A stretch of DNA of 64,000 nt, taken from Thermoanaerobaculia bacterium. Lineage in GTDB: Bacteria; Acidobacteriota; Thermoanaerobaculia; Gp7-AA8. The notes beneath the pieces were generated by a model, which was not told the DNA's origin, made no database searches, and saw only the letters and a list, made by a program, of their open reading frames with translations. The position numbers and the translations under genes are program-made. Where the stretch lies: assembly GCA_036001325.1 (NCBI GenBank), contig DASYUK010000480.1, positions 1,033-65,032 on the forward strand. Reading direction: 5' to 3'. Positions 6,239 through 53,627 of the stretch are shown piece by piece (the stretch's first letter is position 1; every line of letters begins with the position of its first letter).

Positions 6239-6321
6239 GGGTCGTAGGTCGTAGGTCGTAGGTGCCGTGGGCCTTTTGGCGCTGAGGCCCCGATACCTAC
6301 GACCCACGACCTACGACCTAC
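6239..6321. repeat. long imperfect palindrome built from (GTCGTAG)3 ... (CTACGAC)3 arms with an inner GGGCC/GGCCC hairpin
   Basis: Direct reading: gggtcgtaggtcgtaggtcgtaggt...acctacgacccacgacctacgacctac; overlaps the ddl stop codon; sits between two minus-strand genes. Confidence 0.8.
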
Positions 6322-7400
6322 GTAATCCTACGCGCGTTGCGCAGCCACTCGAGCGCGCCGTCGCGCCGGGCGGTACGCGATCGGTGACGCTCCAAACCGA
6401 GCTCGATGAGCATCTCGATCAATTTCGAATATTTGATCTCGGTCGCCTCCCACAGTTTGGGATACATGGAGATGGTCGTGAAGCCCGGGATCGTATTGAT
6501 CTCGTTCACGAGCAGGCGACTGGTTCCCTTCTCCAGAAAAAAGTCGACGCGCGCGTAACCGCTTGCGCCGATCGCGCGAAACGCTCCCACCGCGAGCCGT
6601 CGAATCTCTTCGGTCTTTTCCTTCGGCAGCTTCGCCGGGATGACCAGCGTCGACTTCGCGTCGGCAGCGTATTTGTCCTCATAGTCGTAAAACTCGCGTC
6701 CGGCGATGATCTCGCCAGGCACGGACGCCTGCGGTTGATCGTTGCCGAGGACTGAGACTTCGAGCTCGCGAGCGTCGACGCCGCGCTCGATCAGGATCTT
6801 GTCGTCGAATCGCAGCGCGAATTCCACTGCAGCGGCGAGATCGCCGTCGCTCTTCACCTTCGTTACGCCGATCGATGATCCGCTGTTCGCCGGCTTCACG
6901 AAATAGGGAAGCCGCAACATGTTGATGACGGCGCGCGTGACCCGCTCGCGCTCATCGCTCCACTCAGTCTCGTGCACGAGAACGTATTCGACGGTCGGCA
7001 GCTTCGCCGTCGCGAAGGCGTGCTTCATGTGTCCCTTGTCCATCCCCACCGCCGACGCCGCGACGCCCGAGCCGACATACGGCGCGCCGATCGTCTCGAG
7101 GTAACCCTGCAGAGTGCCGTCCTCCCCACCGGTGCCGTGAATCAGAGGGAAGACGACATCCGCATTGCCGGCGCGCCACCATGAGTCGAACGAGAAATCG
7201 ACATCTCCTGCATCGCTGCTCGCGCCGCCGAGGATCTCCGCACTGCGCTGCGGCGCAATGAAGCGACCATCTTTCGCCACGCAGATCGGGATGATCTCGA
7301 TGCGCGACTTCGGCGCGGCGTTCGCGACAGAACGTGCCGAGAGAATCGAGACGTCGTGCTCGGCGCTCCGGCCGCCGAAGATCAGGGCTGTGCGGATCAT
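6318..7400 (-). CDS. ddl: D-alanine--D-alanine ligase
   Basis: 360 aa; ATP-grasp fold with N-terminal IFGGRSAEHDVS and C-terminal conserved Ddl motifs. Confidence 0.95.
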   Translation of the reverse strand: MIRTALIFGGRSAEHDVSILSARSVANAAPKSRIEIIPICVAKDGRFIAPQRSAEILGGASSDAGDVDFSFDSWWRAGNADVVFPLIHGTGGEDGTLQGYLETIGAPYVGSGVAASAVGMDKGHMKHAFATAKLPTVEYVLVHETEWSDERERVTRAVINMLRLPYFVKPANSGSSIGVTKVKSDGDLAAAVEFALRFDDKILIERGVDARELEVSVLGNDQPQASVPGEIIAGREFYDYEDKYAADAKSTLVIPAKLPKEKTEEIRRLAVGAFRAIGASGYARVDFFLEKGTSRLLVNEINTIPGFTTISMYPKLWEATEIKYSKLIEMLIELGLERHRSRTARRDGALEWLRNARRIT

Positions 7401-7412
7401 GTCTTCAAGGGT

Positions 7413-7497
7413 GTCAGGTCTTCAGTTTTCAGTTTTTTTCTACGACCATTGGATTTTTCCAAGACCGGTAGAAAAAAACTGAAAACTGAAGACCTGA
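7413..7497. terminator. perfect 31-bp inverted repeat (bidirectional terminator-like) with U/A tracts
   Basis: gtcaggtcttcagttttcagtttttttctac ... gtagaaaaaaactgaaaactgaagacctgac; lies between MCE gene stop and ddl start on the minus strand. Confidence 0.75.
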
Positions 7498-7503
7498 CCC
7501 CAT

Positions 7504-9036
7504 TTACTTCCCGATCGGGATGCTTCCGAGCAGATACTTCAAATCGTCGTCGCGCCAGCGGATGCCGCCGCCAATCGTGAAAGCGACGTCATTGAGCGGG
7601 TTGTCGACGCCCGCCGTCACAAAAAGGCGCGGCGTTTTCGGTTTCTCGCGCCGCAGCGTGTACTCGCCATAAGCGCGGAAGTGGGGACTGTTGTCGTAGC
7701 GCTGGCCGAAATCGAACGCTTCGCCGGTGAGCCGTACACGCGGATTGAACTGATAATCCGCGCCGACGCCGCCGGTGTTGTCGATCAGACCGACGCGCAG
7801 GCCGAGGTTATCGAGCAACCATCCCGCCTGCGCGGTGATGCGGAAGTCGCGATCGAATCGCGTCTCGTGCGTGATTGTCGTCGTCGTGATTCCTGTTGCC
7901 GGATTCGTCACGGTGAGAATCGTGTCTTTCTCGCGCTTGCGGCCGCGTGGATCGTCCGCGAGCTCGATGTTGTAGAAGCGGTTCCGATCGACATTCGGAA
8001 TCAATCGAAGCGTGGCCGCCGATCGCGAGCTGCCGCCGAAATTCTTGATTCCGTTCTGTTCCTTGTTGAGACCAGCCATGTAGTCGGCCTTCAGACCGAG
8101 GTCCATGCCGATCTTGCTCACGCGGCCGAGCGTGGTTCTCAGCTCGGTGACGCCCGTATCGACAGAAGCGAGAGCGGACGTGAGCCGCTCGTGCGCTTCG
8201 GGACTGTAGATCAGCTTCCCGACAGTTCCCTGGCCGCTCTTCACCTGGCCGGTGATGTCGTTCAGGTTGGTCGTGGTGATCTTCAAATCGGCGGAGAGCG
8301 TCCGCAGGTTTTCGACGACGCGGCGCAGGTCCTCGCGATTCTCACCGACTGTGCCGCCGATCTGATTGGCCACACGATCGAGCGACGCGGCCAGCTTGGG
8401 GATCTCCATGCGCAGGTCCGCCGTGATCGCGCGCATGTTGCCGACGGTAGCGTCGACGTTCGCGCGGTTCGCGGCGATCAACTCGCGCGTCTCGGCGGTG
8501 ATCAGCCGGACGTTCTCGACGATGTCCTCGAGCCTCTCTTGGCCGCCCGGTCCCGCCATCACGTGCCGCAGAGATTCGGTGATCGCTTTCACGTCGGCGG
8601 CGATGAGTGAGATCTGATTCGTCACGTCATCGATCGATGCCGGCGAGGTTCCTCGCAGCGTCACGGTCACCTGCGGCGGCATCGCCGGCGCGTTCTGCGT
8701 TCCCGGATCGAGCTCGACGTATTTCTCGCCCAGGAGACCGAGGTTCGCGACGTGCGCCGAAGCGTTGCTGCGCATCGGGACGTCGTCATCGATCTCCAGC
8801 GTCACTTCCGCTTTCCCGTTCGGGAGCAGCCGGATCTTCGACACTTTTCCCTTGCGCACGCCGGCCACGCGCACGGCTGATTTCTCATCGAGACCGGCGA
8901 CATTGTCGAAGATCACCTTGACCTGGCGCGTCCCTTTGCCGCGACTGATGTCGATGTCCTCGATCTTCAGGATGAAGTAGCCGAGGATGCCGAGGATGAT
9001 CAGCATGAAGACGCCGACTTTGGCTGCTGGTGACAT
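7504..9036 (-). CDS. MCE/MlaD-family protein with long C-terminal extension
   Basis: N-terminal TM plus MCE domain (VKVIFDNVAGLDEKSAVRVAGVRKGKV); about 350 aa extension ending in beta-strand-rich region with terminal aromatic-rich segment. Confidence 0.8.
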   Translation of the reverse strand: MSPAAKVGVFMLIILGILGYFILKIEDIDISRGKGTRQVKVIFDNVAGLDEKSAVRVAGVRKGKVSKIRLLPNGKAEVTLEIDDDVPMRSNASAHVANLGLLGEKYVELDPGTQNAPAMPPQVTVTLRGTSPASIDDVTNQISLIAADVKAITESLRHVMAGPGGQERLEDIVENVRLITAETRELIAANRANVDATVGNMRAITADLRMEIPKLAASLDRVANQIGGTVGENREDLRRVVENLRTLSADLKITTTNLNDITGQVKSGQGTVGKLIYSPEAHERLTSALASVDTGVTELRTTLGRVSKIGMDLGLKADYMAGLNKEQNGIKNFGGSSRSAATLRLIPNVDRNRFYNIELADDPRGRKREKDTILTVTNPATGITTTTITHETRFDRDFRITAQAGWLLDNLGLRVGLIDNTGGVGADYQFNPRVRLTGEAFDFGQRYDNSPHFRAYGEYTLRREKPKTPRLFVTAGVDNPLNDVAFTIGGGIRWRDDDLKYLLGSIPIGK

Positions 9037-10991: not shown

Positions 10992-11015
10992 CATAACCGA
11001 GGACCGAGGACCGAG
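10992..11015. repeat. tandem heptamer (CCGAGGA)x3 immediately upstream of galU start; same 24-mer recurs at 45898-45925
   Basis: aaccgaggaccgaggaccgaggac identical at both loci. Confidence 0.8.
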
Positions 11016-11079
11016 GACTGGTGGTTGACACAGAACTTGCTTTGGCGGAATGACGTACTACTATTCTGAACTGCAGGCG

Positions 11080-17767: not shown

Positions 17768-17818
17768 CGTTGGTCCCTGGTCGTTAGTCAACGACTAACG
17801 ACCAGGGACTAAGGACCA
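17768..17818. promoter_or_regulatory. 15-bp perfect stem-loop with outer stem sequestering the bshA Shine-Dalgarno
   Basis: ccctggtcgttagtc aac gactaacgaccaggg, flanked by tggtcc...ggacca that includes AAGGA 5 nt upstream of bshA ATG. Confidence 0.6.
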
Positions 17819-17819
17819 A

Positions 17820-18983
17820 ATGCGAATCGGCATCACCTGCTACCCCACCTTCGGCGGCTCCGGTGTCATCGCCACGGAGCTCGGCATCGCTCTGGCCCGG
17901 CAGGGCGACGACATCCATTTCATCAGCTACGCACTTCCGTCGCGTCTCAACATCCTGCTGCACGAGCGCGTGCACTTCCATGAAGTGACCGTCACCGCGT
18001 ATCCGCTTTTCGATCCCTATCCGCCGTACACGCTCGCGCTGGCGACGAAGATGGCCGAGGTGGCGGCGTACGAGAAGCTCGATGTACTTCATGTGCATTA
18101 CGCCATCCCTCACGCCATCAGCGCCTATCTCGCCAAACAGATCCTCGGCGCGCGCGATCTCAAAGTGATCACCACGCTGCATGGAACGGACATCACGCTT
18201 GTCGGTCGCGATGAGAGCTATCTCCCGATCACCAAGTTCGGCATCGAAGTGTCCGATGGCGTGACCGCTGTATCGCAGTGGCTGAAGAACGAGACCGCGC
18301 GCAATTTCGGTACGCAGAAACCGATCGAGGTGATCTCGAACTTCGTCGACCCCGATCGCTTTCAGCATCATCGCAGCGCGTTCTGTCACATGTTCGGCGC
18401 ATCGACCGACAAGCTGGTGTGCCACGTCTCCAACTTCCGTCCGGTGAAGCGCGTCATGGATGTGATCAGCATCTTCGAAAAAGTGTCGCGCGTGGTGCCG
18501 AGCCGTTTGATGATGATCGGCGACGGGCCCGATCGCTCGCGCGCCGAGGCCTATTGTCGCGAGCATCGTCTGCGCGATCGCGTCTTCTTCCTCGGCAACG
18601 TTCCCAACCTCGAAGAGATCCTCGGCGGCAGCGATTTGTTTTTGCTTCCGTCGGAATCGGAGTCGTTCGGTATGGCGGCGCTCGAAGCGATGGCGTCCGA
18701 GGTCCCTGTGATCGCTACGCGCGCAGGCGGGTTGCCGGAAGTGATCGAAGACGGAGTGAATGGATATCTTCTTTCGGTCGGCGACGTCGAGGTCATGGCC
18801 GAGCGCGCGATCGAGATCCTTTCGAACGACGACGTCGGGCGGAAAATGGGCGCGGCCGGCCGCGCCATCGCGATCGAGAAGTTCGCCGAAGAAAAGATCG
18901 TGCCGCGGTATCGGGAAATGTACGAACGGGTGCTCGACCTTGAGCCCTCTCCCACCGGGAGAGGGTGGCCGAAGGCCGGGTGA
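17820..18983 (+). CDS. bshA: N-acetyl-alpha-D-glucosaminyl L-malate synthase BshA (GT4)
   Basis: MRIGITCYPTFGGSGVIATELG... strong match to BshA; last ~13 codons are encoded by the repeat element. Confidence 0.85.
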   Translation: MRIGITCYPTFGGSGVIATELGIALARQGDDIHFISYALPSRLNILLHERVHFHEVTVTAYPLFDPYPPYTLALATKMAEVAAYEKLDVLHVHYAIPHAISAYLAKQILGARDLKVITTLHGTDITLVGRDESYLPITKFGIEVSDGVTAVSQWLKNETARNFGTQKPIEVISNFVDPDRFQHHRSAFCHMFGASTDKLVCHVSNFRPVKRVMDVISIFEKVSRVVPSRLMMIGDGPDRSRAEAYCREHRLRDRVFFLGNVPNLEEILGGSDLFLLPSESESFGMAALEAMASEVPVIATRAGGLPEVIEDGVNGYLLSVGDVEVMAERAIEILSNDDVGRKMGAAGRAIAIEKFAEEKIVPRYREMYERVLDLEPSPTGRGWPKAG

Positions 18984-19038
18984 GGGGCGCGCCCCTCATC
19001 CGCCGCTGCGCGGCACCTTCTCCCGCGGCGAGAAGGTT
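18944..19038. repeat. three-hairpin dispersed repeat element, copy A (forward orientation)
   Basis: ccctctcccaccgggagaggg / gggtgaggggcgcgcccctcatcc / caccttctcccgcggcgagaaggt; homologous copies at 23633-23734 and (inverted) 53519-53614. Confidence 0.85.
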
Positions 19039-19043
19039 TCTGC

Positions 19044-21443
19044 TCACGGCTCCGCTCTCAATCCTCCCTGTGGTCCCGCATTGCCGTAGATTTCGTTGTA
19101 GCGACGGTAACTGTTCATCACTTTCCGCACGTAGTCTTTCGTCTCATCGAAGTTGATCGCGGAGAAAAACCAGTCGTCGCCTGCCGCGGGAGCGAGGCGC
19201 AACCAGAGGGCGACCTGTTTCGGCCCGGCATTGTAGGCGGCAGCGGTCCTGTACGAGTTCCCGTCGAATTGTTTCGACAGTTCACTGACGTACTTCGCGC
19301 CGAGCTTGATGATGACGCGCGGATCGTAGAGATCCTCCGGTGCCACGTCGATCAATCCGACGTCGCGGCCGATCTCGCGCGCGGTGGTGATGATGAACTG
19401 CAGCAGACCGCGCGCCGCAGCTTCCGATTTCGCGCGAGGATTGAATCGCGACTCCTCACGCATGATCGCGAGCACGAGCGTCGGGTCGGTGCCGAACTTC
19501 TGCGAATCCTCGACGATGAAGCCGTAGAAGTACCGCGGATAGAGCAACTGCCGCACGATGAGCGGCAGGAGATCGGGCAGATAGTCAGCGGGGGCCGATT
19601 TCATCAACACTTCGACCGCGTAAATCGACTCGCGCGAGGCGCCGCCGCGATTGAAGGCGATCGATTGCGTCAGCGCCGACTTCAGCGGTCGAAGGGGATA
19701 GTGCTGGCGCACCTGATCCGCCGCTTCGTCGTAGAGGCCCAGCGCCATCAGCAGCGTAGCGCGATCGTTCGGGTTGACATTCGGCAGGCGCGGCAGCGGC
19801 TCAGGCTGCAACTCGAGAATGTTTTTGTACGCGGGGGTCTGGCGGTAGATGTCGGCCAGCCGTTGCAGTTCGGGCGAGCGATTGCGCGACGACAGGAGAA
19901 TGCGATCGGTTTCGATCTGCCTGGCCACCGCGAATTGTTTCGATGCGATGAGATTTCTGACCTGCGCTTCCCGGATGATCAATTCCTGTGTGACTCGAGA
20001 TTGCATTGCAGCGCTCTCGAGCCGCTCGCGCGCGAAGTACGCGAAGTGCGTCGAGACAGTCGAGCGCAGGACGCCGAGGTATTCGTTGAATGCGGCGTGA
20101 AGGTCGCGGCTCTCGAGAGCGCGAGCGCGCCAATAGCCATACTCCGGAACGTCAGACTTGTCGAGGAGCTTGCGCGGGACAGAGTTGAGCACAGACAGTG
20201 CTGTGCCACTCTTTCCCGCGCCGAGAACGCCGGACGCGTAGGCAAGCGATCCTTCGACGACCGCGTGATCGTTCGGCGCGATCTTGCGAAGGAGCTGAAG
20301 ATCGGTCGCGGCATCGGCGAATCGCTTCTGCTTCAGGCGCGTGCGAATGCGCTGGGTGAGCGCCGCCGTCGTCGCCGGAAATCGTCCCACGACCGCAATC
20401 GTGGCCGTCATCAAGCGCTCCGCACCGGCGTCGTCGCCGCGAAGCTGCGCCGCCCGCGACGCGTGAAACAGAAAAGTGGCTTTGGCCTTCGCATTGACCG
20501 CCGTGTTCGCGCCGCGCATGTACGTCTGCTGCGCCTCGGCGTATTTCTCGTCGCCGAAGTAGCTGCGCCCGATATCGAAGAGCAGCTCATCGCGCCGAGC
20601 CGGCAAACCGCTCAGCGCAGCATTGAGCAGGACGACGGCGCGATCGAACCGGCGATGGTTCCGCAACGCGTCGCCGATGGTCGCTTTCTGTTCGGCGTTC
20701 ATGCGTGCGACGAGGTCGGAACGATCGAGCGCCCGGCTGACTCGATCCGCCGCGTCGTCCGTGGTTCCGCCTTTGAGAAGCGCAATGCCGCCGGCAAACG
20801 CATTGGCCAACTGGCCGGCGCGGAGTTGCGACTCCACGATGCGAGCGCTCAGCTCGCGACGGCGTGCTGTGCTTGCGGCCGGCGTGACGGCGCGGACGAA
20901 TGCGACGAGAGGCGACGGGTCGCCGAGGGATTGCAGGTAATCCGCTTCTTCGTCGATGGCCTGGTCGCGATAGAAAGCCTGAGGGTATTCCGCGATGAGC
21001 TGCTGGCGAACACGGCTCGCTGCGGCTCGGTCGTCATTGGCCTGATCGATCTCGGCCTGGTGATACAGGGCGAGGTCGCGGAAGGCGCTTTTCGCATCGA
21101 GGAACGGAGCGAGTTTGCGCGCCGCGTCTCGAAGCTCGTTTCGCTCGATGAGCACACGCGCATGCAGATAGCCGAGCGAGTAACGCGCGTATAGATCGGC
21201 ATCGTGCTGTTCGATCTGATCGAGCAGCTCTTCGACCTCAGTGGGCGACAGCCGCTCGAACTCTTCGGTCCACCGCTCGACGGGAGGAATGCCCGCGGGC
21301 GGTTTGGCGCGACGCTCGGCCGGAGCAGCTCGAAACACGCGATGACGTCGCAGGCGCTGCTGTGAGATGACGATGGCGAGAATCGCGATCGCAGCGAGAA
21401 CCGCCGCTCCCGCCCCAACCGATATCCAGAGGCGTTTCCTCAA
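19044..21443 (-). CDS. slt: soluble lytic murein transglycosylase (Slt70-like: TPR-like superhelix + SLT domain)
   Basis: C-terminal SLT catalytic motif ...LAIMREESRFNPRAKSEAAARGLLQF...AAYNAGP...; N-terminal TM anchor. Confidence 0.85.
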   Translation of the reverse strand: MRKRLWISVGAGAAVLAAIAILAIVISQQRLRRHRVFRAAPAERRAKPPAGIPPVERWTEEFERLSPTEVEELLDQIEQHDADLYARYSLGYLHARVLIERNELRDAARKLAPFLDAKSAFRDLALYHQAEIDQANDDRAAASRVRQQLIAEYPQAFYRDQAIDEEADYLQSLGDPSPLVAFVRAVTPAASTARRRELSARIVESQLRAGQLANAFAGGIALLKGGTTDDAADRVSRALDRSDLVARMNAEQKATIGDALRNHRRFDRAVVLLNAALSGLPARRDELLFDIGRSYFGDEKYAEAQQTYMRGANTAVNAKAKATFLFHASRAAQLRGDDAGAERLMTATIAVVGRFPATTAALTQRIRTRLKQKRFADAATDLQLLRKIAPNDHAVVEGSLAYASGVLGAGKSGTALSVLNSVPRKLLDKSDVPEYGYWRARALESRDLHAAFNEYLGVLRSTVSTHFAYFARERLESAAMQSRVTQELIIREAQVRNLIASKQFAVARQIETDRILLSSRNRSPELQRLADIYRQTPAYKNILELQPEPLPRLPNVNPNDRATLLMALGLYDEAADQVRQHYPLRPLKSALTQSIAFNRGGASRESIYAVEVLMKSAPADYLPDLLPLIVRQLLYPRYFYGFIVEDSQKFGTDPTLVLAIMREESRFNPRAKSEAAARGLLQFIITTAREIGRDVGLIDVAPEDLYDPRVIIKLGAKYVSELSKQFDGNSYRTAAAYNAGPKQVALWLRLAPAAGDDWFFSAINFDETKDYVRKVMNSYRRYNEIYGNAGPQGGLRAEP

Positions 21444-21895
21444 GATTGCTCAGGCGCGAGCGTGCCGCTCAGTAACGCATGCGGCGCGCGCCGGAGGATC
21501 TCGGCTCGCGCAATGGCATAGCCAAGGATGGCGTCGACGAGCATGCGCCGTCCGTCGCGCGAGAGAAGAATGAGCACCTTCTGTTTCACCTCGCGGATCT
21601 CGACGATGTCTTCCCACCGCATCCACTGGCTGCGCTTCCCGAACCACGACAACAGCCGGTTCTCGTACATCACGCCGATGTCACTGAAATAGATGTGATC
21701 GCCGTACTGCAGCGCCATCGCCGCCAGCGTGGCGAGGAACAGGAGGATCAGGCCGATGATCGGCAGCGGGCGGATGTCGTCGGCGCTGTTGGCCAGGTAA
21801 GTGAAGAACAAGGCGGCCGAAGCGAACGACGACGCGCAGGAGATGAGGCGTGGAACGGGAGGACGATCGAAAACGAGGATCTGTTTGGTCGTCAT
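21440..21895 (-). CDS. hypothetical 2-TM membrane protein (bacterial PH-like)
   Basis: 151 aa; no strong family match. Confidence 0.45.
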   Translation of the reverse strand: MTTKQILVFDRPPVPRLISCASSFASAALFFTYLANSADDIRPLPIIGLILLFLATLAAMALQYGDHIYFSDIGVMYENRLLSWFGKRSQWMRWEDIVEIREVKQKVLILLSRDGRRMLVDAILGYAIARAEILRRAPHALLSGTLAPEQS

Positions 21896-21931
21896 TCGGG
21901 TCGATGTGTATGATGCCGAGCCTTCATCATC

Positions 21932-23674
21932 ATGCGCTGGTCACGTTACTTCATCAACACCCTTCGCGAAGTTCCGGCGGACGCCGACGTCATCAGTCAG
22001 AAGCTGATGATGCGCGCCGGAATGATCCGCAAAGTCGCGGCAGGAATCTACACCTATCTGCCGCTGGGATTGCGATCGGTGAAGAAGCTGGAGGCCATCG
22101 TCCGCGAGGAGATGAACCGCGCCGGATCGGTCGAGCTGCTCATGCCGGCGGTTCAGCCCGCCGAGCTGTGGATGGAATCGGGCCGCTGGCAGAAATACGG
22201 GAAAGAGCTTCTGCGCATCAAGGATCGCCACGAGCGCGACTTCGTCTTCGCTCCGACGCATGAGGAGGTCATCACCGAGACCGTGCGCGACGCGATCTCG
22301 TCGTACCGGCAGCTCCCGGTGAATCTCTATCAGATCCAGACGAAATTTCGCGATGAAGTGCGTCCACGCTTCGGCCTCATGCGCGGCCGCGAGTTCATCA
22401 TGAAGGACGCGTACTCGTTCCACACCTCGGCCGAATCCCTCGACGAGGTTTACGGAGCGATGCGCGAGGCGTACACGCGCGTCTTTCATCGCTGCGCGCT
22501 CGATCACGTGCCCGTCGAAGCGGACACCGGAGCGATCGGCGGATTGGTGTCGCACGAATTCATGGTGCTCGCGCAGTCGGGCGAAGACGCCGTGGTCAGT
22601 TGTCCGGCGTGCAAATACGGCGCGAACATCGAGAAGGCGACGTCGAAGTTCTTCAGCGACGAGCCCGAGCCGGCGCCGATGCTGGAGATGGCGCCGCTGC
22701 ATACGCCGGGAACGCAGTCGATCGATGACGTCGGCCGCTTTCTGAACAAGCCCACATCGCAACTCGTCAAGACCCTCGTCTTCGAAACGGAGAACGGACC
22801 GGTGATGGTTCTCGTCCGCGGCGACCGCGAAGGCAACCTGGTGAAGATCAAGAACCACCTCGGCGTGGATATGCTGGAGATGTTGCCCGACAGCCGCTTC
22901 GAAGCGGCGACCGGCGCGCCGGTTGGCTACTGCGGTCCGGTCGGAACGAAATGCGCGCGCGTGCTCGCCGACGTATCGCTGAAAAACCGGAAGAACTGGA
23001 TCGTCGGCGGCAATGTCAAAGACACGCACACGTCGAGTGTGAATCCCGGCCGCGATTTTCCGGAACCGGAGTGGGGTGATTTCACCACCGTCTTTGCGGG
23101 CGATCCGTGTCCTCGCTGCGGCACGCCGCTCGAGATTTATCGCGGGATCGAAGTGGGTCACATCTTCAAGCTCGGGACGAAGTACTCCGACTCGATGCAT
23201 TGCGTCTTTCTCGACGAGAAGGGCGAGCGCCAGCCGATGATCATGGGCTGCTACGGACTGGGCATCGGCCGCACTGTCGCCGCCGCCGTCGAGCAGAGTC
23301 ACGATGACGACGGCATCATCTGGCCGATGCCGATCGCTCCGTTCGAGGTGGTCGTCACCGCACTCGGTCGCGAGGAGGCCGTCGTCCGCACTGCCAACGA
23401 CGCGTACGAAAAGTTACTCGCCGCCGGTATCGATGTGCTCTTCGACGATCGCGATGAGCGTCCCGGCGTGAAGTTCAAAGACGCCGATCTCATCGGCTTC
23501 CCGCTGCGCGTTGCCGTCGGGGCGAAGAGCCTGGCCAACGGTCAGATCGAGTGGAGTTGGCGCAAGGACCGGTCAAAACAACTCGGAGCGCCGGAGGATG
23601 TTGTGGCGCGAGTGGTCGAGGAAGTGAAGAAAGCCCTCTCCCACCGGGAGAGGGCGGCGCGGAGCGCCGGGTGA
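21932..23674 (+). CDS. proS: proline--tRNA ligase (bacterial type with editing insertion)
   Basis: 580 aa; class II aaRS motifs and anticodon-binding C-terminus; last codons overlap repeat copy B. Confidence 0.95.
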   Translation: MRWSRYFINTLREVPADADVISQKLMMRAGMIRKVAAGIYTYLPLGLRSVKKLEAIVREEMNRAGSVELLMPAVQPAELWMESGRWQKYGKELLRIKDRHERDFVFAPTHEEVITETVRDAISSYRQLPVNLYQIQTKFRDEVRPRFGLMRGREFIMKDAYSFHTSAESLDEVYGAMREAYTRVFHRCALDHVPVEADTGAIGGLVSHEFMVLAQSGEDAVVSCPACKYGANIEKATSKFFSDEPEPAPMLEMAPLHTPGTQSIDDVGRFLNKPTSQLVKTLVFETENGPVMVLVRGDREGNLVKIKNHLGVDMLEMLPDSRFEAATGAPVGYCGPVGTKCARVLADVSLKNRKNWIVGGNVKDTHTSSVNPGRDFPEPEWGDFTTVFAGDPCPRCGTPLEIYRGIEVGHIFKLGTKYSDSMHCVFLDEKGERQPMIMGCYGLGIGRTVAAAVEQSHDDDGIIWPMPIAPFEVVVTALGREEAVVRTANDAYEKLLAAGIDVLFDDRDERPGVKFKDADLIGFPLRVAVGAKSLANGQIEWSWRKDRSKQLGAPEDVVARVVEEVKKALSHRERAARSAG

Positions 23675-23734
23675 GGGGCTAGCCTCTCGCCCCTCATCTG
23701 CCGCTTCGCGGCACCTTCTCCCGCCGGGAGAAGG
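23633..23734. repeat. three-hairpin dispersed repeat element, copy B
   Basis: gccctctcccaccgggagagggcgg...gggtgaggggctagcctctcgcccctcatc...caccttctcccgccgggagaagg. Confidence 0.85.
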
Positions 23735-23761
23735 CTCTGAGCGGTCTGCTATCCTTTTCTC

Positions 23762-25153
23762 ATGCGCAAATTTCGTCTCATCGCGCTTTGCCTGCTCGCC
23801 GCGACCCCCTTGGCCGCGCAGAACACCGACATCGAGTCGCTCTCCGGCCTTCAATTCAACTTCGGCAATCCCGGCGCACGCTCCCTCGGCATGGGCGGCG
23901 CGTTCCTCGGCCGCGCCGACGATGCCTCGGCAGCCGAGGCGAATCCCGCCGGCTTGACGATTCTGCGGAAGCCGGAGATTTCGGTCGAGGCGCGCAACTA
24001 CGTTGAACAGCAGCTCTTCACCACGACCGGCACATACCCGGATGTGGTTAGAACGCCGTTCACGCACTACAGCGACCGCGTGTCGATCAGCTTCGCCAGC
24101 GCTGTCTATCCGATCAAGAACTTCACGATCGGTCTCTACTTCCACGAGCCGCTGAAGAACGCCGGCGGCGGCATTGTCTTCCCGAAGTTCGATCAGAACA
24201 CCGGCCGCATCGTGACGAAGACACCGAACTTCTATCTGCCGAGCGGGGGCGGCGCGCCGATGAGTCAGGCCGCCTGCGTACAACTTCGCATCGACACAAA
24301 GAATCCGGCTGCTTGCCTCGAGTATCGCGTCGACCCGTTCATTTCCGCGCTCGACGTTCGTCAGCGCACCTGGGGCTTCGCCGCCGGTTGGCAGGTCCTG
24401 CCGAAGCTTTCCGTCGGTGCGAACGTGCGCGCGCAGTTCTTCAAAGAGGGAGCATTCACGAGCCGGTACGACGGCGTAACCTTCGATCTGAAGAACATCT
24501 CCGTGCAAGCCACCGCCCGCGCCAACGGTACGGACGTGGAGCTGACCGAAGAGCGTGACATCACCTTCGGCCTCGGATTCAAATATGCGCCGACGGACAA
24601 AATCAGCGTCGGCGGCGTCTACAAGCAGGGGGCGCGCTTCGACGCGCCGACATTCTTCCTGGGCTCACAAACCGGAGGAGAGTTCCTCAAGGTTGCCGAC
24701 ACCGTCTTTCACAATCCCGACATCGCCGGCGTCGGTATTTCGTATCAGCCAATCCCTGTCCTGACGATCAACGCGGACGCCGACTACGTGAAGTATTCGA
24801 ATCTCGTCGACGATTTCGTCTCGGTCGTCGCCGATGTCTCCAGCCTCAACCAACCATTCGTCGCGAAGAACGTCACCGAACTGCACATCGGCGCGGAGTA
24901 CTTTTTCGCGATCAAGGTGCCCTTCGCGATCCGCGCGGGCTACTGGCACGATCCGGCGCACGCCGTCACATGGAATGGTCCGCTCACGCGCGCCGACTAC
25001 ATCGCCGAGGCGATGCTCTATCCGAAGACGCAGGATCAGAACCATTTCTCGATCGGCGGCGGCTTCGCCTGGCCGAAGTTCCAGATCGATTTCGCGTACG
25101 ACACGGCGAAGTACTACAAGGTTGGATCGCTATCGATGGTGACGCGCTTCTAG
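23762..25153 (+). CDS. outer-membrane beta-barrel protein (FadL/PorV-like)
   Basis: Signal peptide; N-terminal GNPGARSLGMGGAFLGRADDASAAEANPAGL motif; alternating beta-strand pattern; C-terminal ...VTRF. Confidence 0.6.
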   Translation: MRKFRLIALCLLAATPLAAQNTDIESLSGLQFNFGNPGARSLGMGGAFLGRADDASAAEANPAGLTILRKPEISVEARNYVEQQLFTTTGTYPDVVRTPFTHYSDRVSISFASAVYPIKNFTIGLYFHEPLKNAGGGIVFPKFDQNTGRIVTKTPNFYLPSGGGAPMSQAACVQLRIDTKNPAACLEYRVDPFISALDVRQRTWGFAAGWQVLPKLSVGANVRAQFFKEGAFTSRYDGVTFDLKNISVQATARANGTDVELTEERDITFGLGFKYAPTDKISVGGVYKQGARFDAPTFFLGSQTGGEFLKVADTVFHNPDIAGVGISYQPIPVLTINADADYVKYSNLVDDFVSVVADVSSLNQPFVAKNVTELHIGAEYFFAIKVPFAIRAGYWHDPAHAVTWNGPLTRADYIAEAMLYPKTQDQNHFSIGGGFAWPKFQIDFAYDTAKYYKVGSLSMVTRF

Positions 25154-30422: not shown

Positions 30423-30424
<2 letters not shown>

Positions 30425-30493
30425 TTTTGGATTTGCGATTTTGGATTTTGGATTGAGCCGAATCCAAAATCGAAAATCCAAAATCGAAAATGA
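30423..30493. promoter_or_regulatory. A/U-rich long imperfect inverted repeat of GATTTTG/CAAAATC units spanning the start codon of the downstream gene
   Basis: gattttggatttgcgattttggattttggatt gagccg aatccaaaatcgaaaatccaaaatcgaaaATG; no SD upstream of the ATG. Confidence 0.7.
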
Positions 30494-36291: not shown

Positions 36292-37470
36292 GCGCTTCCC
36301 ACGGCGACCCGCATCGCCGTTTACTGCTATCTCGCCCACATTCTCCTGCAGGGGAAAATCGCGCTCTCCGAGCTCGGCGTCGCGGCGACCCTGGCCGCCG
36401 TCGGCTGGGCGATCTCGCGACGCGAGCTGCGCCCGTCGTTTCACATCCTCTACTACCCGCTGGTGCTGTACGGCGTCGTCTCCACGCTTTCGGCGCTGGT
36501 GAATCATTCGTCGCGGCATCTGTTCGCGGAAAGCGCGCTGTGGCTGAAGATGCTCATCTTTCCAGCGGCGCTGATTCTTTTTCGCGAGGTACCGCCGCTG
36601 CGCGAGCTCGCGCTGCGCGCGCAGATCGCTTTCGCGACTGCGATCGCGGCGTTTGGCATCTACCAGTACTTCGTTCTGCAGCGACAGGATCTCGAGCATC
36701 GCATCACCGGCCCATCGACTCACGTGATGACGTATTCGGGTTTGCTCCTTCCGGCCTCGCTGCTGCTCGTCGTACTGGCGGTGCGTCGAAAACAGGCGTG
36801 GCTCTACGCGTGCGCGATCGTCGTTTCATTTGCCCTGCTGTTGACATTCACGCGCAGCGTCTGGCTCGGATGGATCGTGGCGATTCTCGCCGTCTTGACG
36901 CTGCGAAAGCCGCGTTGGCTGATCTTTGCCGTTCCGGTCTTGTTGTTCGGGCTGAGCTTCATGCCCGACTCGATGTTCGGTCGACTCGTTTCTTCGTTCG
37001 ACACGCGACAGTCGTCGAATCTCGACCGCATCCGGATGGCCGAAGCGGGTGTGGAGATGATCAAGGACCACCCCGTCTTCGGCGTCGGTCCGGCCAACGT
37101 GAAGGAGATGTATCCGCTCTATCGCCGCGAAGACGCGCCGCGCTTCCGCCCGCCCCACCTCCATAACAACATCATCCAGCTCTGGGCGGAGCGCGGCATC
37201 GGCGCGGTCATCGCCTACATCCTTCTTCTCGCGCTTTTTCTTCGCGAATGCGCGCGCGGCTGGCGCGGGCCGGCGCGCGAATTCGCCGAGGCGGGTGTGG
37301 CCATCACCGTCGGCCTGGCCTATGCGGGCCTGTTCGAGTTCAACTTCGGCGACACCGAAGTGTTTCTGATCATGCTCGAGCTGTTCGCACTCGTGATCGC
37401 CTCCATCGAAGCGGCCCAGCCTGCCACGAATGAACGGCTGCTGGTCATTGTTCCATCGGCGTCGGCGTGA
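36292..37470 (+). CDS. O-antigen ligase/Wzy_C-family polytopic membrane protein (start uncertain)
   Basis: Multiple TM helices and periplasmic loop motif LLTFTRSVWLG...; no ATG before 36550 so a non-ATG start or overlap with Trm112 gene is likely. Confidence 0.65.
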   Translation, partial: ALPTATRIAVYCYLAHILLQGKIALSELGVAATLAAVGWAISRRELRPSFHILYYPLVLYGVVSTLSALVNHSSRHLFAESALWLKMLIFPAALILFREVPPLRELALRAQIAFATAIAAFGIYQYFVLQRQDLEHRITGPSTHVMTYSGLLLPASLLLVVLAVRRKQAWLYACAIVVSFALLLTFTRSVWLGWIVAILAVLTLRKPRWLIFAVPVLLFGLSFMPDSMFGRLVSSFDTRQSSNLDRIRMAEAGVEMIKDHPVFGVGPANVKEMYPLYRREDAPRFRPPHLHNNIIQLWAERGIGAVIAYILLLALFLRECARGWRGPAREFAEAGVAITVGLAYAGLFEFNFGDTEVFLIMLELFALVIASIEAAQPATNERLLVIVPSASA

Positions 37471-37471
37471 A

Positions 37472-37557
37472 GGGTCGTCGGTCGTAGGTCATAGGTATCG
37501 GGGGCCTTATCGCCTGAATGCCCCCAGTACCCACGACCCACGACCCACGACCCAACC
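37472..37557. repeat. imperfect palindrome of (GTCGTAG)-like and (CCACGAC)3 units with inner GGGGGC/GCCCCC hairpin
   Basis: gggtcgtcggtcgtaggtcataggtatcgggggc...gcccccagtacccacgacccacgacccacgaccc; same unit family as 6239-6321. Confidence 0.75.
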
Positions 37558-43423: not shown

Positions 43424-43497
43424 GGTTGCGCGGTTCCGCGGTTGCGTGGTTACGCAGTCCTACCGCGCAACCCCGCAACTGCGCAACCCCGCAACCA
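43424..43497. repeat. imperfect palindrome of (GGTTGCGC)-like units facing (GCGCAACC/CCGCAACT) units, 3' arm abuts the ATG of DUF309 gene
   Basis: ggttgcgcggttccgcggttgcgtggttacgcag...ccgcgcaaccccgcaactgcgcaaccccgcaaccaATG. Confidence 0.7.
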
Positions 43498-45897: not shown

Positions 45898-45925
45898 GAA
45901 ACCGAGGACCGAGGACCGAGGACCG
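45898..45925. repeat. tandem heptamer (CCGAGGA)x4; second copy of the 10992-11015 motif
   Basis: aaaccgaggaccgaggaccgaggaccgacgac. Confidence 0.8.
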
Positions 45926-45929
45926 ACGA

Positions 45930-46145
45930 CTAAGGTTTCTTCTCGCTCTCCTGCACTGCGGCGATCGCGCCCTGGAAGCCGATCTTCGAGTGGGTGCCGT
46001 CGCAGAACGGCTTCGTCGTCGATCCACCGCAGCGGCAGAGTTTCGGTTTCTGCACCGGCACTTCCTGCCCCTGCGCGTCGATCAGTTTGAACTCGCCTTG
46101 AACGATGTAGGGACCATTCTCGGCGATCTTGATGGTGATGCTCAT
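45930..46145 (-). CDS. CDGSH-type iron-sulfur domain protein
   Basis: CRCGGSTTKPFCDGTH motif. Confidence 0.8.
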   Translation of the reverse strand: MSITIKIAENGPYIVQGEFKLIDAQGQEVPVQKPKLCRCGGSTTKPFCDGTHSKIGFQGAIAAVQESEKKP

Positions 46146-48956: not shown

Positions 48957-50021
48957 ATGAGCGAGCAAGCGACGGCCACAGGTGTCGTTCCCTCAGGGCC
49001 ATTCGTGGTCCGGGCGGTTCTGCGCACGGATGTCGGACGCGTTCGCTCCGAGAACCAGGACTTCGGGACGCTCACGACACCGGCCGAAGACAAGGGCGCG
49101 CATCCGGGCGGGCGGTTGATGATCGTCGCCGATGGCATGGGCGGGCATCGCGGTGGAGCCACGGCGTCGCGCCTCGCCGGCGAGACGATCAAGTCGTATT
49201 ACCTCGGCGGTGGAACCGACGATATCGCCGGCGCGCTTCGCGAGGCGTTGACACGCGCAAACTCGCTGATCTTCGCCGAGGCGCAGACGCATGCGGAATT
49301 GCACGGGATGGGAACGACGACTTCAGCGCTGGTCGTGCGTGGGAATGAAGCCTGGTTTGCGCACGTCGGCGACTCGCGCATCTATCTGATCCGCGGCGAT
49401 GAGATCAATCAGTTGACGGATGATCACTCGCTCGTCGCAACGATGGTCCGCGAAGGGTTGCTTACGGTGAAAGAGGCGGAGAATCATCCGCGACGAAACG
49501 TGCTCCAGAGATCGATAGGCGTCGGTGCGGAGGTGGAAATCGACGTGCGCGGGCCTCTCGAGGTGCAGCAGGGCGACACGTTCGTTCTCTGCAGCGACGG
49601 TTTGCACGGCCTCGTCAAACCGGAAGAGATCAAGGAGATCGTTGCGAACCGGCAGATCGAAGCGGCCGCCGACGATCTGGTCGATCACGCTCTCGAACGC
49701 GGCGCGCCCGACAACGTGACCGTGATCGTTGCGCGAATCGAGCGCGAGGATTTCGACGATGAGCCGACGGTCGTCGACCGCGAGCCTGATCGGGTAGCGT
49801 TCGACGATACGGTGCGGGAGGAGCGTCTCAGTGGAGCGCCGGTGTCCTCACCGGCGGTGCGTGACGCCGGTGAGGACACCGGCGCCCCACCGAGCACCGC
49901 CCCTCCCCGTCGCATCCGTGGATCAACGATCATCAAATGGATGTTGCTCTTCGTGGTCGTGCTCGGTGCGGCCGGCGCGTGGTTGTTCTTTGCCCAGCAG
50001 CAGATGTTTCATATCCGTTAG
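48957..50021 (+). CDS. PP2C-family Ser/Thr phosphatase with C-terminal TM segment
   Basis: RSENQDF, MIVADGMGGHRGG, CSDGL, ERGAPDNVTVIV motifs. Confidence 0.9.
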   Translation: MSEQATATGVVPSGPFVVRAVLRTDVGRVRSENQDFGTLTTPAEDKGAHPGGRLMIVADGMGGHRGGATASRLAGETIKSYYLGGGTDDIAGALREALTRANSLIFAEAQTHAELHGMGTTTSALVVRGNEAWFAHVGDSRIYLIRGDEINQLTDDHSLVATMVREGLLTVKEAENHPRRNVLQRSIGVGAEVEIDVRGPLEVQQGDTFVLCSDGLHGLVKPEEIKEIVANRQIEAAADDLVDHALERGAPDNVTVIVARIEREDFDDEPTVVDREPDRVAFDDTVREERLSGAPVSSPAVRDAGEDTGAPPSTAPPRRIRGSTIIKWMLLFVVVLGAAGAWLFFAQQQMFHIR

Positions 50022-51666: not shown

Positions 51667-52310
51667 GGGACAAAGTGGCCGATAAACGATGTGAGAACGG
51701 GCACTTTATCGACGAGTCGTGGGACCTCTGTCCTTACTGTCCGGCGGAGAGTGGCGAGCAGGACATCGCCGTCGTTCGTCCCGCGCGTGCCGTTCCTCCT
51801 TCAGCGCCGGCAGTGGAGCCCTCTCGACCGGTGACGGCAGTGCCGGGAGTGCCGCGGCGCCAGACTCCGCAGCCGGTGCAGGCTCCGCCGCCGGTCCAGA
51901 CTCCGCCGATGGAGCGAACGGTCGCGGTTCCGAAGGCCGTCGATCCCGCAGCGCAAACGAAGCGCTATGTCGTGGGCTGGCTCGTCGGCCTCAATGGCAC
52001 GAGCCGTGGCGAATCGTTCGCGATTCGCATCGGCCGCAATGTTCTCGGCCGCGACCGCCGCTCCGACATCGTGGTCAGCGACGATCAGGCATCGTCGCAT
52101 CACGCCGATCTCGTCTTCCGTCCCGAGGAGCGGCGTTTCATTCTGATGGATCACAACTCCACGAACGGGACGTATGTCAACGAAGTCGAAATCGAGCCGC
52201 GCCGCGATCTCATCGGCCAGGACGTCATCCGGATCGGCTCGCAGAAGTTTCTCTTCATGCCGCTGATTCAGGACGGCTTCTACTGGGACGATGAAGGTGC
52301 TCTGAAATGA
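51663..52310 (+). CDS. zinc-ribbon + Pro-rich linker + FHA domain protein
   Basis: CENGHFIDESWDLCPYCP ribbon; C-terminal IGRNVLGRDRRSDIVVSDDQASSHHADL...STNGTYVN FHA; ATGA overlaps on both sides. Confidence 0.75.
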   Translation: MRDKVADKRCENGHFIDESWDLCPYCPAESGEQDIAVVRPARAVPPSAPAVEPSRPVTAVPGVPRRQTPQPVQAPPPVQTPPMERTVAVPKAVDPAAQTKRYVVGWLVGLNGTSRGESFAIRIGRNVLGRDRRSDIVVSDDQASSHHADLVFRPEERRFILMDHNSTNGTYVNEVEIEPRRDLIGQDVIRIGSQKFLFMPLIQDGFYWDDEGALK

Positions 52311-53518
52311 TCGGAAACGTCATCGGCAATTACCGCATCGAGCGCGAGATCGGCGAAGGCGGGATGAGTCACGTCTACGTTGGTCGCACGACGGGGGCGA
52401 CAGAGATCCTGCCCGCGAATTACGAGGTCGTGCTCAAAGTGATGTCCGACGATCTGGCCGGCGAGATCACCGCGCGCAAGCGCTTCGTCAAAGAAGCACA
52501 GATCCTCTCGAAGCTGCGCCATCGCTACATCACGCGGTTCTACGAGTTCATCAACAACGAGAGCGGCGCGGTTCTGATCATGGAGTTCGTCGAAGGGATT
52601 CCGGTGGACCTCTTGATCGCGGAGCAGGGGGCGCTGGCGGTTCGCGACGCCGTTTCGATTGCGCAGTGCATGCTGGAGGCGCTCGTCTACGCTCATGGCA
52701 AAGGCATCGTTCATCGCGATATCAAACCGGCCAATCTGATTCGCGAGAGCTCCGGCGCAGTGAAAGTGACCGACTTCGGCATCGCCAAGATCAAAGAGGG
52801 CGCCGGCGCAACCGGACAGACCGTGCTCACGAAATCGGGATTCCTCCTCGGCACGCCGCATTACATGTCGCCGGAACAGATCCGCGAGCCGAAAGACGCC
52901 GGCGTGAAGTGCGACATCTATTCAGCGGGCGTTGTGCTCTACGAGATGCTCACCGGCGCGCTGCCGTTCAACAGCCGCTCGCTGCCCAAGCTGATCGACG
53001 CGATCTATCGCGGTGAGAAACAGCCGCCCAGCACCGTGCGTCCGGAAGTCGACAAGGAGCTCGAGGCGATTGTTCTCAAATCGATGCATCCGCGTCACGA
53101 GCAGCGTTATGAGACGGCTCGCGAGTTTTACGAGGCGCTCGAGGAGTACAACGCCAAGCAGCCGGTAGCGAGCATGCCGACGGCCCGCGTCGTGGCGCAA
53201 GGAGCGCCGGCGCCCGCGCAGCCGCAGTGGATGCTGGTCCCGGTGAAGAACGACTCGACCGAGAAGCATGCGATCAACGGCCAGAGCGTGATGGTCGGGC
53301 GCGATCGCACATGCTCGATCGTTCTGTCGCATCCGGCGGTGTCACGGCGTCACGCTCGTATCACGCTCAGCGGCACGGCGTGGGTCCTCGAGGATCTGCA
53401 GTCGGCGAACGGGACGTACGTGAACAACACGCGCGTCGACAAGGTGAAGTTGAAAGCCGGAGATGTGGTGCGATTCGGTGCGGACCCGGCGTGTACCTAT
53501 GTATTGAGAGATCACTGA
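52307..53518 (+). CDS. Ser/Thr protein kinase with C-terminal FHA domain
   Basis: Hanks motifs (GEGGMSHVY, HRDIKPANL, DFG, SPE) and FHA (VGRDRTCSIVLSHPAVSRRHARI...SANGTYVN). Confidence 0.9.
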   Translation: MIGNVIGNYRIEREIGEGGMSHVYVGRTTGATEILPANYEVVLKVMSDDLAGEITARKRFVKEAQILSKLRHRYITRFYEFINNESGAVLIMEFVEGIPVDLLIAEQGALAVRDAVSIAQCMLEALVYAHGKGIVHRDIKPANLIRESSGAVKVTDFGIAKIKEGAGATGQTVLTKSGFLLGTPHYMSPEQIREPKDAGVKCDIYSAGVVLYEMLTGALPFNSRSLPKLIDAIYRGEKQPPSTVRPEVDKELEAIVLKSMHPRHEQRYETAREFYEALEEYNAKQPVASMPTARVVAQGAPAPAQPQWMLVPVKNDSTEKHAINGQSVMVGRDRTCSIVLSHPAVSRRHARITLSGTAWVLEDLQSANGTYVNNTRVDKVKLKAGDVVRFGADPACTYVLRDH

Positions 53519-53614
53519 CGCCTTCTCCCCGCGGGAGAAGGTGGCGCGAAGCGCCGGATGACGGGCGTGCCCCTCACCCGGCCGTGCGGCCACCCTCTCC
53601 CGGAGGGAGAGGGA
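53519..53614. repeat. three-hairpin dispersed repeat element, copy C (inverted orientation, middle hairpin degenerate)
   Basis: ccttctccccgcgggagaagg...ggatgacgggcgtgcccctcaccc...caccctctcccggagggagaggg. Confidence 0.8.
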
Positions 53615-53627
53615 ACTTGGAGTAACC

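Follow-up and report, generated by a model that had tools for sequence, protein, structure and literature searches.

Elements of the BoxC kind have been known in Escherichia coli since the 1990s; the name PIT element reportedly goes back to Hoyne and Maher in 2000, and TM_ECO was added as a third name in 2015. All three names refer to the same repeat, which follows the pattern CCCTCNCCC-N3-6-GGGNGAGGG-N3-GGGNGAGGG and whose single strand adopts a class II, purine-motif intramolecular triplex as judged by circular dichroism (CD) and nuclear magnetic resonance (NMR) (Holder et al. 2015, PMC4666352). The same study described TM_ECO as intergenic, frequently arranged in inverted pairs and variable between strains, reported it in Proteobacteria only, and linked its loci to local instability in E. 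coli; PIT elements acted neither as promoters nor as terminators, and RNA does not form purine-motif triplexes (PMC4666352). Here we describe a related element of ~95 nt in a member of the Thermoanaerobaculia (Acidobacteriota). Three copies, at the 3′ ends of bshA and proS and in an FHA/kinase operon, lie in a 64,000-nt stretch of contig DASYUK010000480.1 (assembly GCA_036001325.1, positions 1,033 to 65,032 of the forward strand), hereafter called the window. These doublets are probably copied, non-coding, non-autonomous BoxC-type repeats whose modules would form triplexes in single-stranded DNA. The kind of element is already known; as far as the searched literature shows, the long-connector variant, the A-type module, a range well outside Proteobacteria, the three-way covariation and the documented recent insertions are new.

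Three inverted doublets in the window

An initial annotation made from the sequence alone had proposed three composite repeats in the window, and their positions were confirmed by the sequence, by alignment and by a covariance model. Every copy consists of two ~45-nt modules in inverted orientation, one per strand, and the modules are of two types, G-type and A-type. The copies and the parts of copy A are as follows.

18945-19036: copy A, tail-to-tail doublet (G-type module on +, A-type module on -), lying where bshA (+) and an SLT-domain gene (-) converge
18945-18987, + strand: copy A G-type module, consisting of pyrimidine (Y) arm CCCTCTCCC (18945-18953), loop ACC, purine (R) arm GGGAGAGGG (18957-18965), T (18966), mini-hairpin GGCC-GAA-GGCC (18967-18977) and third strand GGGTGAGGGG (18978-18987), followed by the middle loop CGCG
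18992-19036, - strand: copy A A-type module, consisting of Y arm CCTTCTCGC, R arm GGGAGAAGG, T, mini-hairpin GCCGC-GCA-GCGGC and third strand GGATGAGGGG (complement of 18992-19001)
23634-23734: copy B, tail-to-tail doublet at the proS 3′ end, with a G-type module (+, 23634-23678), an 11-nt middle loop (23679-23689) and an A-type module (-, 23690-23734)
53521-53613: copy C, the doublet in inverted orientation, with an A-type module (+, 53521-53565) and a G-type module (-, 53570-53613), within the FHA/kinase operon

The copies are ~95 nt long (93-103) and share 84-90% identity (blastn: A versus C 90%, A versus B 84-85%), with a mean column identity of 82% when copies and flanks were aligned by MAFFT. 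The half-site CCYTCTCCC-NNN-GGGAGARGG occurs six times in the window, where 0.03 occurrences would be expected by chance. A one-module covariance model, run over the window with filters off, returned exactly six full modules, i.e. the three doublets, at 56-72 bits (57.8 bits for the G-type and 66.9 bits for the A-type module of copy A). Nothing else in the window scored above ~11 bits, except 12-26-bit sub-hits to the same hairpins on the opposite strand. All three doublets occupy intergenic spacers or overlap the 3′ ends of open reading frames (ORFs), and identical copies are present on contigs from four JGI soil metagenomes. An Rfam search, which the initial annotation had proposed, found no family: there were 0 window matches at the gathering threshold, and at E<=1 the six element-bearing loci that were searched gave chance-level matches only.

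Each copy had been described as three consecutive hairpins. The listed stems are correct, but two mini-hairpins (GGCC-GAA-GGCC at 18967-18977 and GCCGC-TGC-GCGGC at 19002-19014) were overlooked, and a copy has five stems in all. Its real layout is that of two inverted BoxC/PIT-type modules. In each module a hairpin of CCYTCTCCC and GGGAGARGG is joined through a C-GNA-G mini-hairpin connector to a GGRTGAGGGG segment, the mirror of the purine arm; the middle hairpin arises because the two G-rich third-strand segments face each other. The G-type arms read CCCTCTCCC-ACC-GGGAGAGGG at 18945-18965 and 23634-23654, and CCCTCTCCC-GGA-GGGAGAGGG at 53593-53613. Window modules have a connector, or second loop, of 12-14 nt, such as T-GGCC-GAA-GGCC; at related loci its length is 10-16 nt. 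Two irregularities noted at the outset hold up, namely a middle loop that is 7 nt longer in copy B, where the connector is also 2 nt longer, and a middle stem with one mismatch in copy C. Antiparallel triads are possible at 9/9 positions in five of the six window modules, including the G-type module of copy A, and at 8/9 in the sixth (GGATGACGG, 53556-53564). The whole element can also be folded as a single long hairpin (-67 to -85 kcal/mol, z -4.6 to -7.6).

The modules are variants of E. coli BoxC

At the sequence level the window modules belong with BoxC/TM_ECO. They share identical arms (CCCTCTCCC / GGGAGAGGG / GGGTGAGGG(G)) in the same Y-R-third order of the class II purine motif. The window G-type modules have the 9-nt C-rich arm CCCTCNCCC and the complementary G-rich arm GGGNGAGGG across a loop of 3 nt, within the 3-6 nt of the pattern, and a second G-rich arm is present in the window modules in a position compatible with antiparallel G·G:C, A·A:T and T·A:T triads. 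Both elements are intergenic and multi-copy, lie as inverted pairs just past stop codons, and vary between strains or relatives. When a model built from window-type modules was applied to the BoxC pair between hrpB and mrcB of E. coli MG1655, both modules were matched (E = 1e-8 and 9e-8) with only the connector deleted. The MG1655 pair is likewise a tail-to-tail doublet, starting 12 nt past the hrpB stop codon. RefSeq annotates no feature at this pair (L169, NC_000913.3 164,547-164,631), and family members are therefore invisible in standard annotation.

The elements also differ in several respects. The second loop comprises 11-16 nt here (a T plus the C-GNA-G mini-hairpin), whereas it is 3 nt in E. 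coli (TTA in type A or CCG in type B); because of this second loop, which does not fit the published pattern, we call the element a variant rather than a plain member of BoxC/TM_ECO. In the window the first module is paired with a second, commoner type (CCTTCTCCC/GGGAGAAGG/GGATGAGGGG) across a middle spacer of only 4-11 nt, and the host is a member of Thermoanaerobaculia. The A-type arms CCTTCTCCC/GGGAGAAGG are one base pair off the literal TM_ECO pattern. Loops were limited to 1-6 nt in the ITxF search (Holder et al., PMC4666352), so that the long-connector variant could not have been detected.

In E. coli the hairpin most often has G opposite A (CCCTCGCCCC/GGGGAGAGGG; 'type A mm', PMC4666352 Table 1). 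The same mismatch is common in soil-metagenome doublets (L129-L164, e.g. L136, L143 and L159) and thus recurs across distant phyla. Integron attC sites, ERIC and Correia elements were set aside in an informal comparison, as their core motifs (GTTRRRY/RYYYAAC, TA duplications) are absent.

Three strands co-vary in the register of a purine-motif triplex

The covariation survey covered >150 loci in about eight phyla. Most bases were fixed in the scan pattern, which left duplex position 7 and third-strand position 3 independently free (R). At these two positions the 133 listed pattern matches had A/A in 101 cases and G/G in 30 and were discordant in 2 (Fisher 9e-28); when the pyrimidine arm was added, the combinations were T/A/A in 94, C/G/G in 28 and others in 5. 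Rarer variants change all three strands together, in register and directly past the connector (GGGAGAAGA/AGATGAGGG, GGGAGAGGA/AGGTGAGGG, GGGGAGAAA/AATGAGGGG, GGGGGAAGG/GGA[AT]GGGGG and GGGGAAGGG/GGG[TA]TGGGG).

In a hairpin-first search, which is unbiased as to the third strand, a triad-compatible 9-mer was sought 2-22 nt downstream of Y9/R9 hairpins. A third strand compatible at 9/9 positions followed 193 of the 309 hairpins, compared with a mean of 12 (maximum 23) after the downstream regions were swapped. In a covariance-model alignment of 147 distinct modules, 99.1% of the cells were triad-compatible, as against 45-57% in shifted registers and 83% in the parallel register, and almost all mutual information lay on the antiparallel diagonal. 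Triads were complete (9/9) in 139 of these modules, whereas shuffling gave a mean of 75. The Watson-Crick stems were paired in 98.3% of cells and had compensatory changes at 7 of 14 pairs, values that none of 500 shuffles reached.

A direct-repeat model, in which the third strand pairs with the C-rich arm in place of the purine arm, was rejected. Asymmetric purine arms distinguish the two arrangements, and the antiparallel register was found in 135 such modules and the parallel, direct-repeat register in 6. These counts, like the 99% versus 83% compatible cells in the alignment of 147 modules, exclude that the third strand forms Watson-Crick pairs with the C-rich arm instead.

The connector was a perfect mini-hairpin in 128 of 133 modules, built from 22 distinct stem pairs, and 92 had a GNA triloop (GAA in 70). 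C-GNA-G triloops of the d(GCGAAGC) type form exceptionally stable DNA hairpins and are typical of DNA rather than RNA. This stability, together with the lack of purine-motif triplexes in RNA, points to a fold at the DNA level rather than the RNA level. We propose that a single strand would first form the 9-10 bp pyrimidine/purine hairpin (CCYTCTCCC / GGGAGARGG) and then turn by means of the very stable C-GNA-G mini-hairpin connector, so that the G/A/T-rich GGRTGAGGGG segment could lie antiparallel on the purine arm in G·G:C, A·A:T and T·A:T triads, giving a purine-motif (class II) intramolecular triplex.

Two of the three copies are insertions

Close relatives with conserved synteny lack copies A and C, which are therefore insertions. 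At the copy A site, 3 nt separate bshA from the convergent SLT gene in L125 (BshA 87% identical), the two genes overlap in L128 (94%), and neither locus has the element. In L126 and L127 (BshA 89%) a head-to-head pair lies past the native stop, whereas the window has a tail-to-tail pair plus 7 extra bases. The head-to-head pair at this bshA/SLT site (L126:1731-1873, and L127) consists of an A-type module (-), a 17-nt spacer and a G-type module (+), the latter identical to that of copy A over 44 nt.

At the copy C site, only a 7-nt spacer (GGGCTGT) lies between the two kinase genes in L165 (kinase 96% identical) and L167 (89%). In the window this place is taken by CG, the element and AACTTGGAGTAACC, which provides a new GGAG ribosome-binding site, and copy C is fixed in the source population. 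By these sequence comparisons, insertion was lineage-specific for two of the three copies in the window. No target-site duplication flanks copy A (compared with L128 and L125) or copy C (compared with L165 and L167); the sole duplication is a 9-nt tandem downstream of copy C.

That tandem (53632-53649, GCCAGATAA|CCCAGATCA) adds 3 codons to the 5′ end of the downstream kinase gene, is found in neither L165 nor L167, and is possibly a side effect of the copy C insertion. In another relative (L168:4213-4270, 87% identical) the copy C site holds a 58-nt spacer with a GGCCGCAGCGGCC mini-hairpin and CCCTCCAGGAGAG, which may be a decayed element.

Copy B is older than copies A and C. Its ortholog in L125 has the same place and orientation, with the stems kept and the loops diverged, and comparison of the window with L125 reveals a compensatory change in the connector (GGCGC-GGA-GCGCC versus GGCC-GAA-GGCC). 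In L125 the proS ortholog (572 aa) ends at a TAG of its own directly ahead of the element, while the window proS lost that stop and continues for 13 codons.

Modules occur across phyla, singly or in inverted pairs

A half-module pattern scan of species-representative genomes found at least 120 loci. Among the matches listed, the carriers include Rhizobiales, Caulobacterales, Sphingomonadales, Xanthomonadales/Lysobacterales, Burkholderiales, Neisseriales, Geobacterales, Terriglobia, Planctomycetota (including Kuenenia), Verrucomicrobiota, Binatia and about ten metagenome-assembled genomes of Thermoanaerobaculia. Many modules were found in Rhizobium, Sinorhizobium/Ensifer, Mesorhizobium, Bradyrhizobium and Agrobacterium, and these rhizobial members may already be named, as Rhizobium-specific intergenic mosaic elements (RIME). 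RIME are intergenic mosaics of large palindromes in rhizobia (PMC2573895).

A pattern for the window composite (tail-to-tail with a short middle) matched 36 metagenome contigs representing ~28 distinct sites. All of these sites have the order G-type, short loop, A-type, and their flanks are unrelated. None of the matched contigs came from samples of the source population. Neighbouring modules no more than 150 nt apart were inverted in 98 cases (65 tail-to-tail and 33 head-to-head) and direct in 0, the tail-to-tail count including the pairs of the 36 metagenome loci that were themselves picked for that layout. About a third of all modules have no detectable partner. A strict heterotypic (A+G) pairing rule was rejected, since AA and GG pairs were also found. 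Together with the absence of copies A and C from relatives and the lack of a U-tract in the sense direction, the recurrence of the composite at ~28 other metagenomic sites and of the module in at least 120 genomic loci bears out the view of the initial annotation that the repeats are a copy-propagated structured element and not independent terminators.

A plasmid vehicle was considered and discarded, as blastn matches in PLSDB were confined to large secondary replicons, mostly non-mobilisable, of Azospirillum, Rhizobium and comparable hosts. At some loci, short tandem copies of the third-strand sequence come after the third strand itself (L025:1121-1150 and L016:2520-2552; GTGTGAGGGG x2-3 and GGTGAGAGG x3), which suggests slippage at the G-rich segment.

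Neighbouring genes and other repeats in the window

The genes next to the three copies are as follows.

17820-18983, + strand: bshA ORF, last 12 codons (PSPTGRGWPKAG) made of element sequence, stop TGA at 18981-18983
19044-21443, - strand: SLT-domain gene, convergent with bshA, stop codon 7 nt past copy A
21932-23674, + strand: proS ORF, 580 aa, last 13 codons (ALSHRERAARSAG) made of element sequence, stop TGA at 23672-23674
52307-53518, + strand: FHA-domain Ser/Thr kinase gene directly upstream of copy C, stop TGA at 53516-53518
53614-53627, + strand: 14-nt spacer AACTTGGAGTAACC that arrived with copy C, as judged from the 7-nt spacer GGGCTGT of L165, with GGAG as Shine-Dalgarno sequence for the downstream kinase gene
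53628-55388: downstream kinase gene, start ATG at 53628

It had been proposed that each copy supplies the last few codons of the gene upstream. This is true of copies A (12 codons of bshA) and B (13 codons of proS); copy C, however, supplies none and starts 3 nt past the kinase stop codon. Both bshA and proS terminate at the TGA of GGG-TGA-GGGG, and the left hairpin is entered in different frames. Homologues of BshA, most of them 371-380 aa in length, end in ...YERVIAGERVGV. The closest homologues of BshA and of the kinase bear Thermoanaerobaculia names. The bshA and proS 3′ extensions are by-products of insertion and of stop-codon loss. The concern that the elements generate spurious ORFs proved minor: JGI gene calls on identical contigs add no ORF there and merely lengthen bshA and proS. 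Peptide tails such as PSPTGRGWPKAG and ALSHRERAARSAG are nevertheless recurrent and lengthen real genes by 12-13 codons, and annotators should recognise their repeat origin.

A second repeat class in this genome, distinct from the triplex doublets, consists of long intergenic hairpins formed by inverted tandem arrays of 7-8-mers (6240-6322, 37468-37554, 30424-30491 and 43424-43496). Their units include (GGTCGTA)n facing (ACCTACG)n, (ATTTTGG-like)n facing (AATCCAA)n and (GGTTGCGC)4 facing (ACCCCGCA)4. Solitary heptamer arrays are also present, namely (ACCGAGG)x3-4 at 10996-11018 and 45901-45930, which share an identical 24-mer, and (CAGGTCG)x4 at 220-248. Two more long inverted repeats lie at 7407-7504 and 49827-49894, one AT-rich (37-nt arms, 95% complementary) and the other GC-rich (30-nt arms, 93%).

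Weighing the explanations

The reading that the evidence favours over four rivals is a REPIN-like, copy-propagated doublet of BoxC-type modules with selection on the single-stranded-DNA triplex fold. Doublets would be copied, presumably through a trans-acting factor, into short intergenic spacers just past stop codons. The triplex may form in vivo wherever DNA is transiently single-stranded, as in replication, repair or transfer, and the fold would be what selection or the copying machinery sees. Observed directly are the anatomy, the family resemblance in sequence, the three-way covariation, which copies relatives have or lack, and the missing terminator features.

Among the rivals, the recurrence of exact 9-mers from E. 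coli to Acidobacteriota, the retention of copy B at proS between relatives with a compensatory connector change, and the local instability tied to TM_ECO loci in E. coli (PMC4666352) could all be explained by a structural site in the DNA that the host selects and keeps for chromosome function, such as H-DNA, a cruciform, a point of fork pausing, a recombination hot spot, or a nucleoid-protein or gyrase site; the repeat would then not be a selfish, copied element. However, close relatives lack copies A and C, and no structure was seen in their stead; one and the same site, that of copy A, may be empty, head-to-head or tail-to-tail. In addition, no binding protein is known. Work in E. coli did not reveal the triplex in vivo (PMC4666352). 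We regard a host site of this kind as unlikely.

A role in RNA, with one long hairpin or several hairpins acting in the 3′ untranslated region in transcription termination or protection from 3′ exonucleases, as REP/BIME do in E. coli, is somewhat less probable still. The RNA folds would be very stable, all three copies lie directly past or overlap gene 3′ ends, and many relatives elsewhere begin a few bases past stop codons. However, when 17800-24200 was scanned for terminators, neither copy A nor copy B had one on the sense strand, the sole match at an element site being antisense, and copy C is followed by AACTTGGAG, which has no U-tract. An intrinsic (Rho-independent) terminator was therefore rejected, as a U-tract oriented with the upstream gene is missing from every copy. 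Copy C also lies inside an operon that has a 7-nt spacer in relatives. RNA hairpins would leave the antiparallel mirroring of the purine arm by the third strand unexplained; the C-GNA-G triloops are typical of DNA, not RNA. Purine-motif triplexes are not formed in RNA, and the E. coli PIT element was without terminator activity (PMC4666352).

REPINs proper, in which a single-copy RAYT (an IS200/IS605-type Y1 transposase) mobilises REP doublets in trans, resemble the elements in being inverted doublets of short GC-rich palindromes, ~95 nt long and able to form a long hairpin, at gene 3′ ends; modules also occur as singletons, pairs are always inverted, and copies are polymorphic for presence and absence in relatives. 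The elements nevertheless lack the GTAG/CGTC tag of REPs. Neither GTAG nor CTAC occurs within any copy or within 15 nt of it, and the only related tetranucleotides are two GACG, both in copy C at non-corresponding positions of the unit. Conversely, REPs have neither a third-strand mirror segment nor a connector mini-hairpin. No RayT-like ORF was found at E<=10 among 7183 stop-to-stop ORFs of the window and ~1.2 Mb of related loci by phmmer, a weak test with E. coli RayT as the single query. In E. coli, RayT goes with classical REPs and is not known to be linked to BoxC. Membership of the REPINs is therefore very improbable. As for MITEs, the elements are likewise small and non-coding with inverted ends, and are present in some genomes and absent from relatives. 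However, there was no target-site duplication at the two filled/empty comparisons, there are no terminal inverted repeats beyond the internal hairpins, and no related insertion sequence was seen. A MITE was rejected on the lack of target-site duplication and of conserved flanks across the ~28 metagenomic doublets. The original label 'REP/MITE-like' is thus not supported: the tag is missing, the phmmer search gave no RayT-like ORF, and neither of the two site comparisons revealed a target-site duplication.

A G-quadruplex of four G-tracts (GGG-AGA-GGG ... GGG-TGA-GGGG) with the connector hairpin as central loop is scarcely credible as the selected structure: G-type modules and E. coli BoxC do fit G3+N(3)G3+N(3-14)G3+N(3)G3+, but the commoner A-type (GGGAGAAGG ... 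GGATGAGGGG) breaks two of the four G3 tracts while keeping every triad, the C-rich arm would compete for the G-tracts, and CD and NMR of TM_ECO indicated a triplex (PMC4666352).

Several points weigh against a copied doublet under selection for a DNA triplex. In E. coli the triplex was observed in isolated single strands only, and neither in duplex DNA nor by dimethyl sulfate footprinting in vivo (PMC4666352). In vitro it was demonstrated for the E. coli sequence, and the long-connector fold is a prediction. The contrast of A-type and G-type, which is the main covariation, could stem from two old sub-families instead of many separate events, a concern that the rarer variants and the register controls lessen without removing. 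Because the scan pattern fixed most bases, the apparent conservation of sequence across phyla is partly due to the selection of matches. With no transposase, target-site duplication or donor site found, the argument for mobility comes down to presence and absence in relatives, and the copy number of three doublets applies to the 64-kb window.

Implications for BoxC elements and DNA triplexes

The BoxC/PIT/TM repeats have been known in E. coli for ~30 years without a function, a mobilising enzyme or evidence of a triplex in vivo. What the present analysis adds is that the hairpin-connector module extends across many phyla, is still inserting in an acidobacterial lineage, and has strands that co-vary in the register of a purine-motif triplex. 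A broader proposition, that the module is a sequence-conserved single-stranded-DNA fold shared across phyla, recognised by a widespread copying or processing machinery and still inserting in Thermoanaerobaculia, is possible, although we put it forward tentatively and with more doubt than belief. If true, the three-way covariation would be the first evolutionary evidence of selection on an intramolecular DNA triplex in living bacteria. The spread of the module, its ongoing insertion and the covariation in register together make the relevance of DNA triplexes in bacteria approachable by comparative genomics and simple oligonucleotide experiments.

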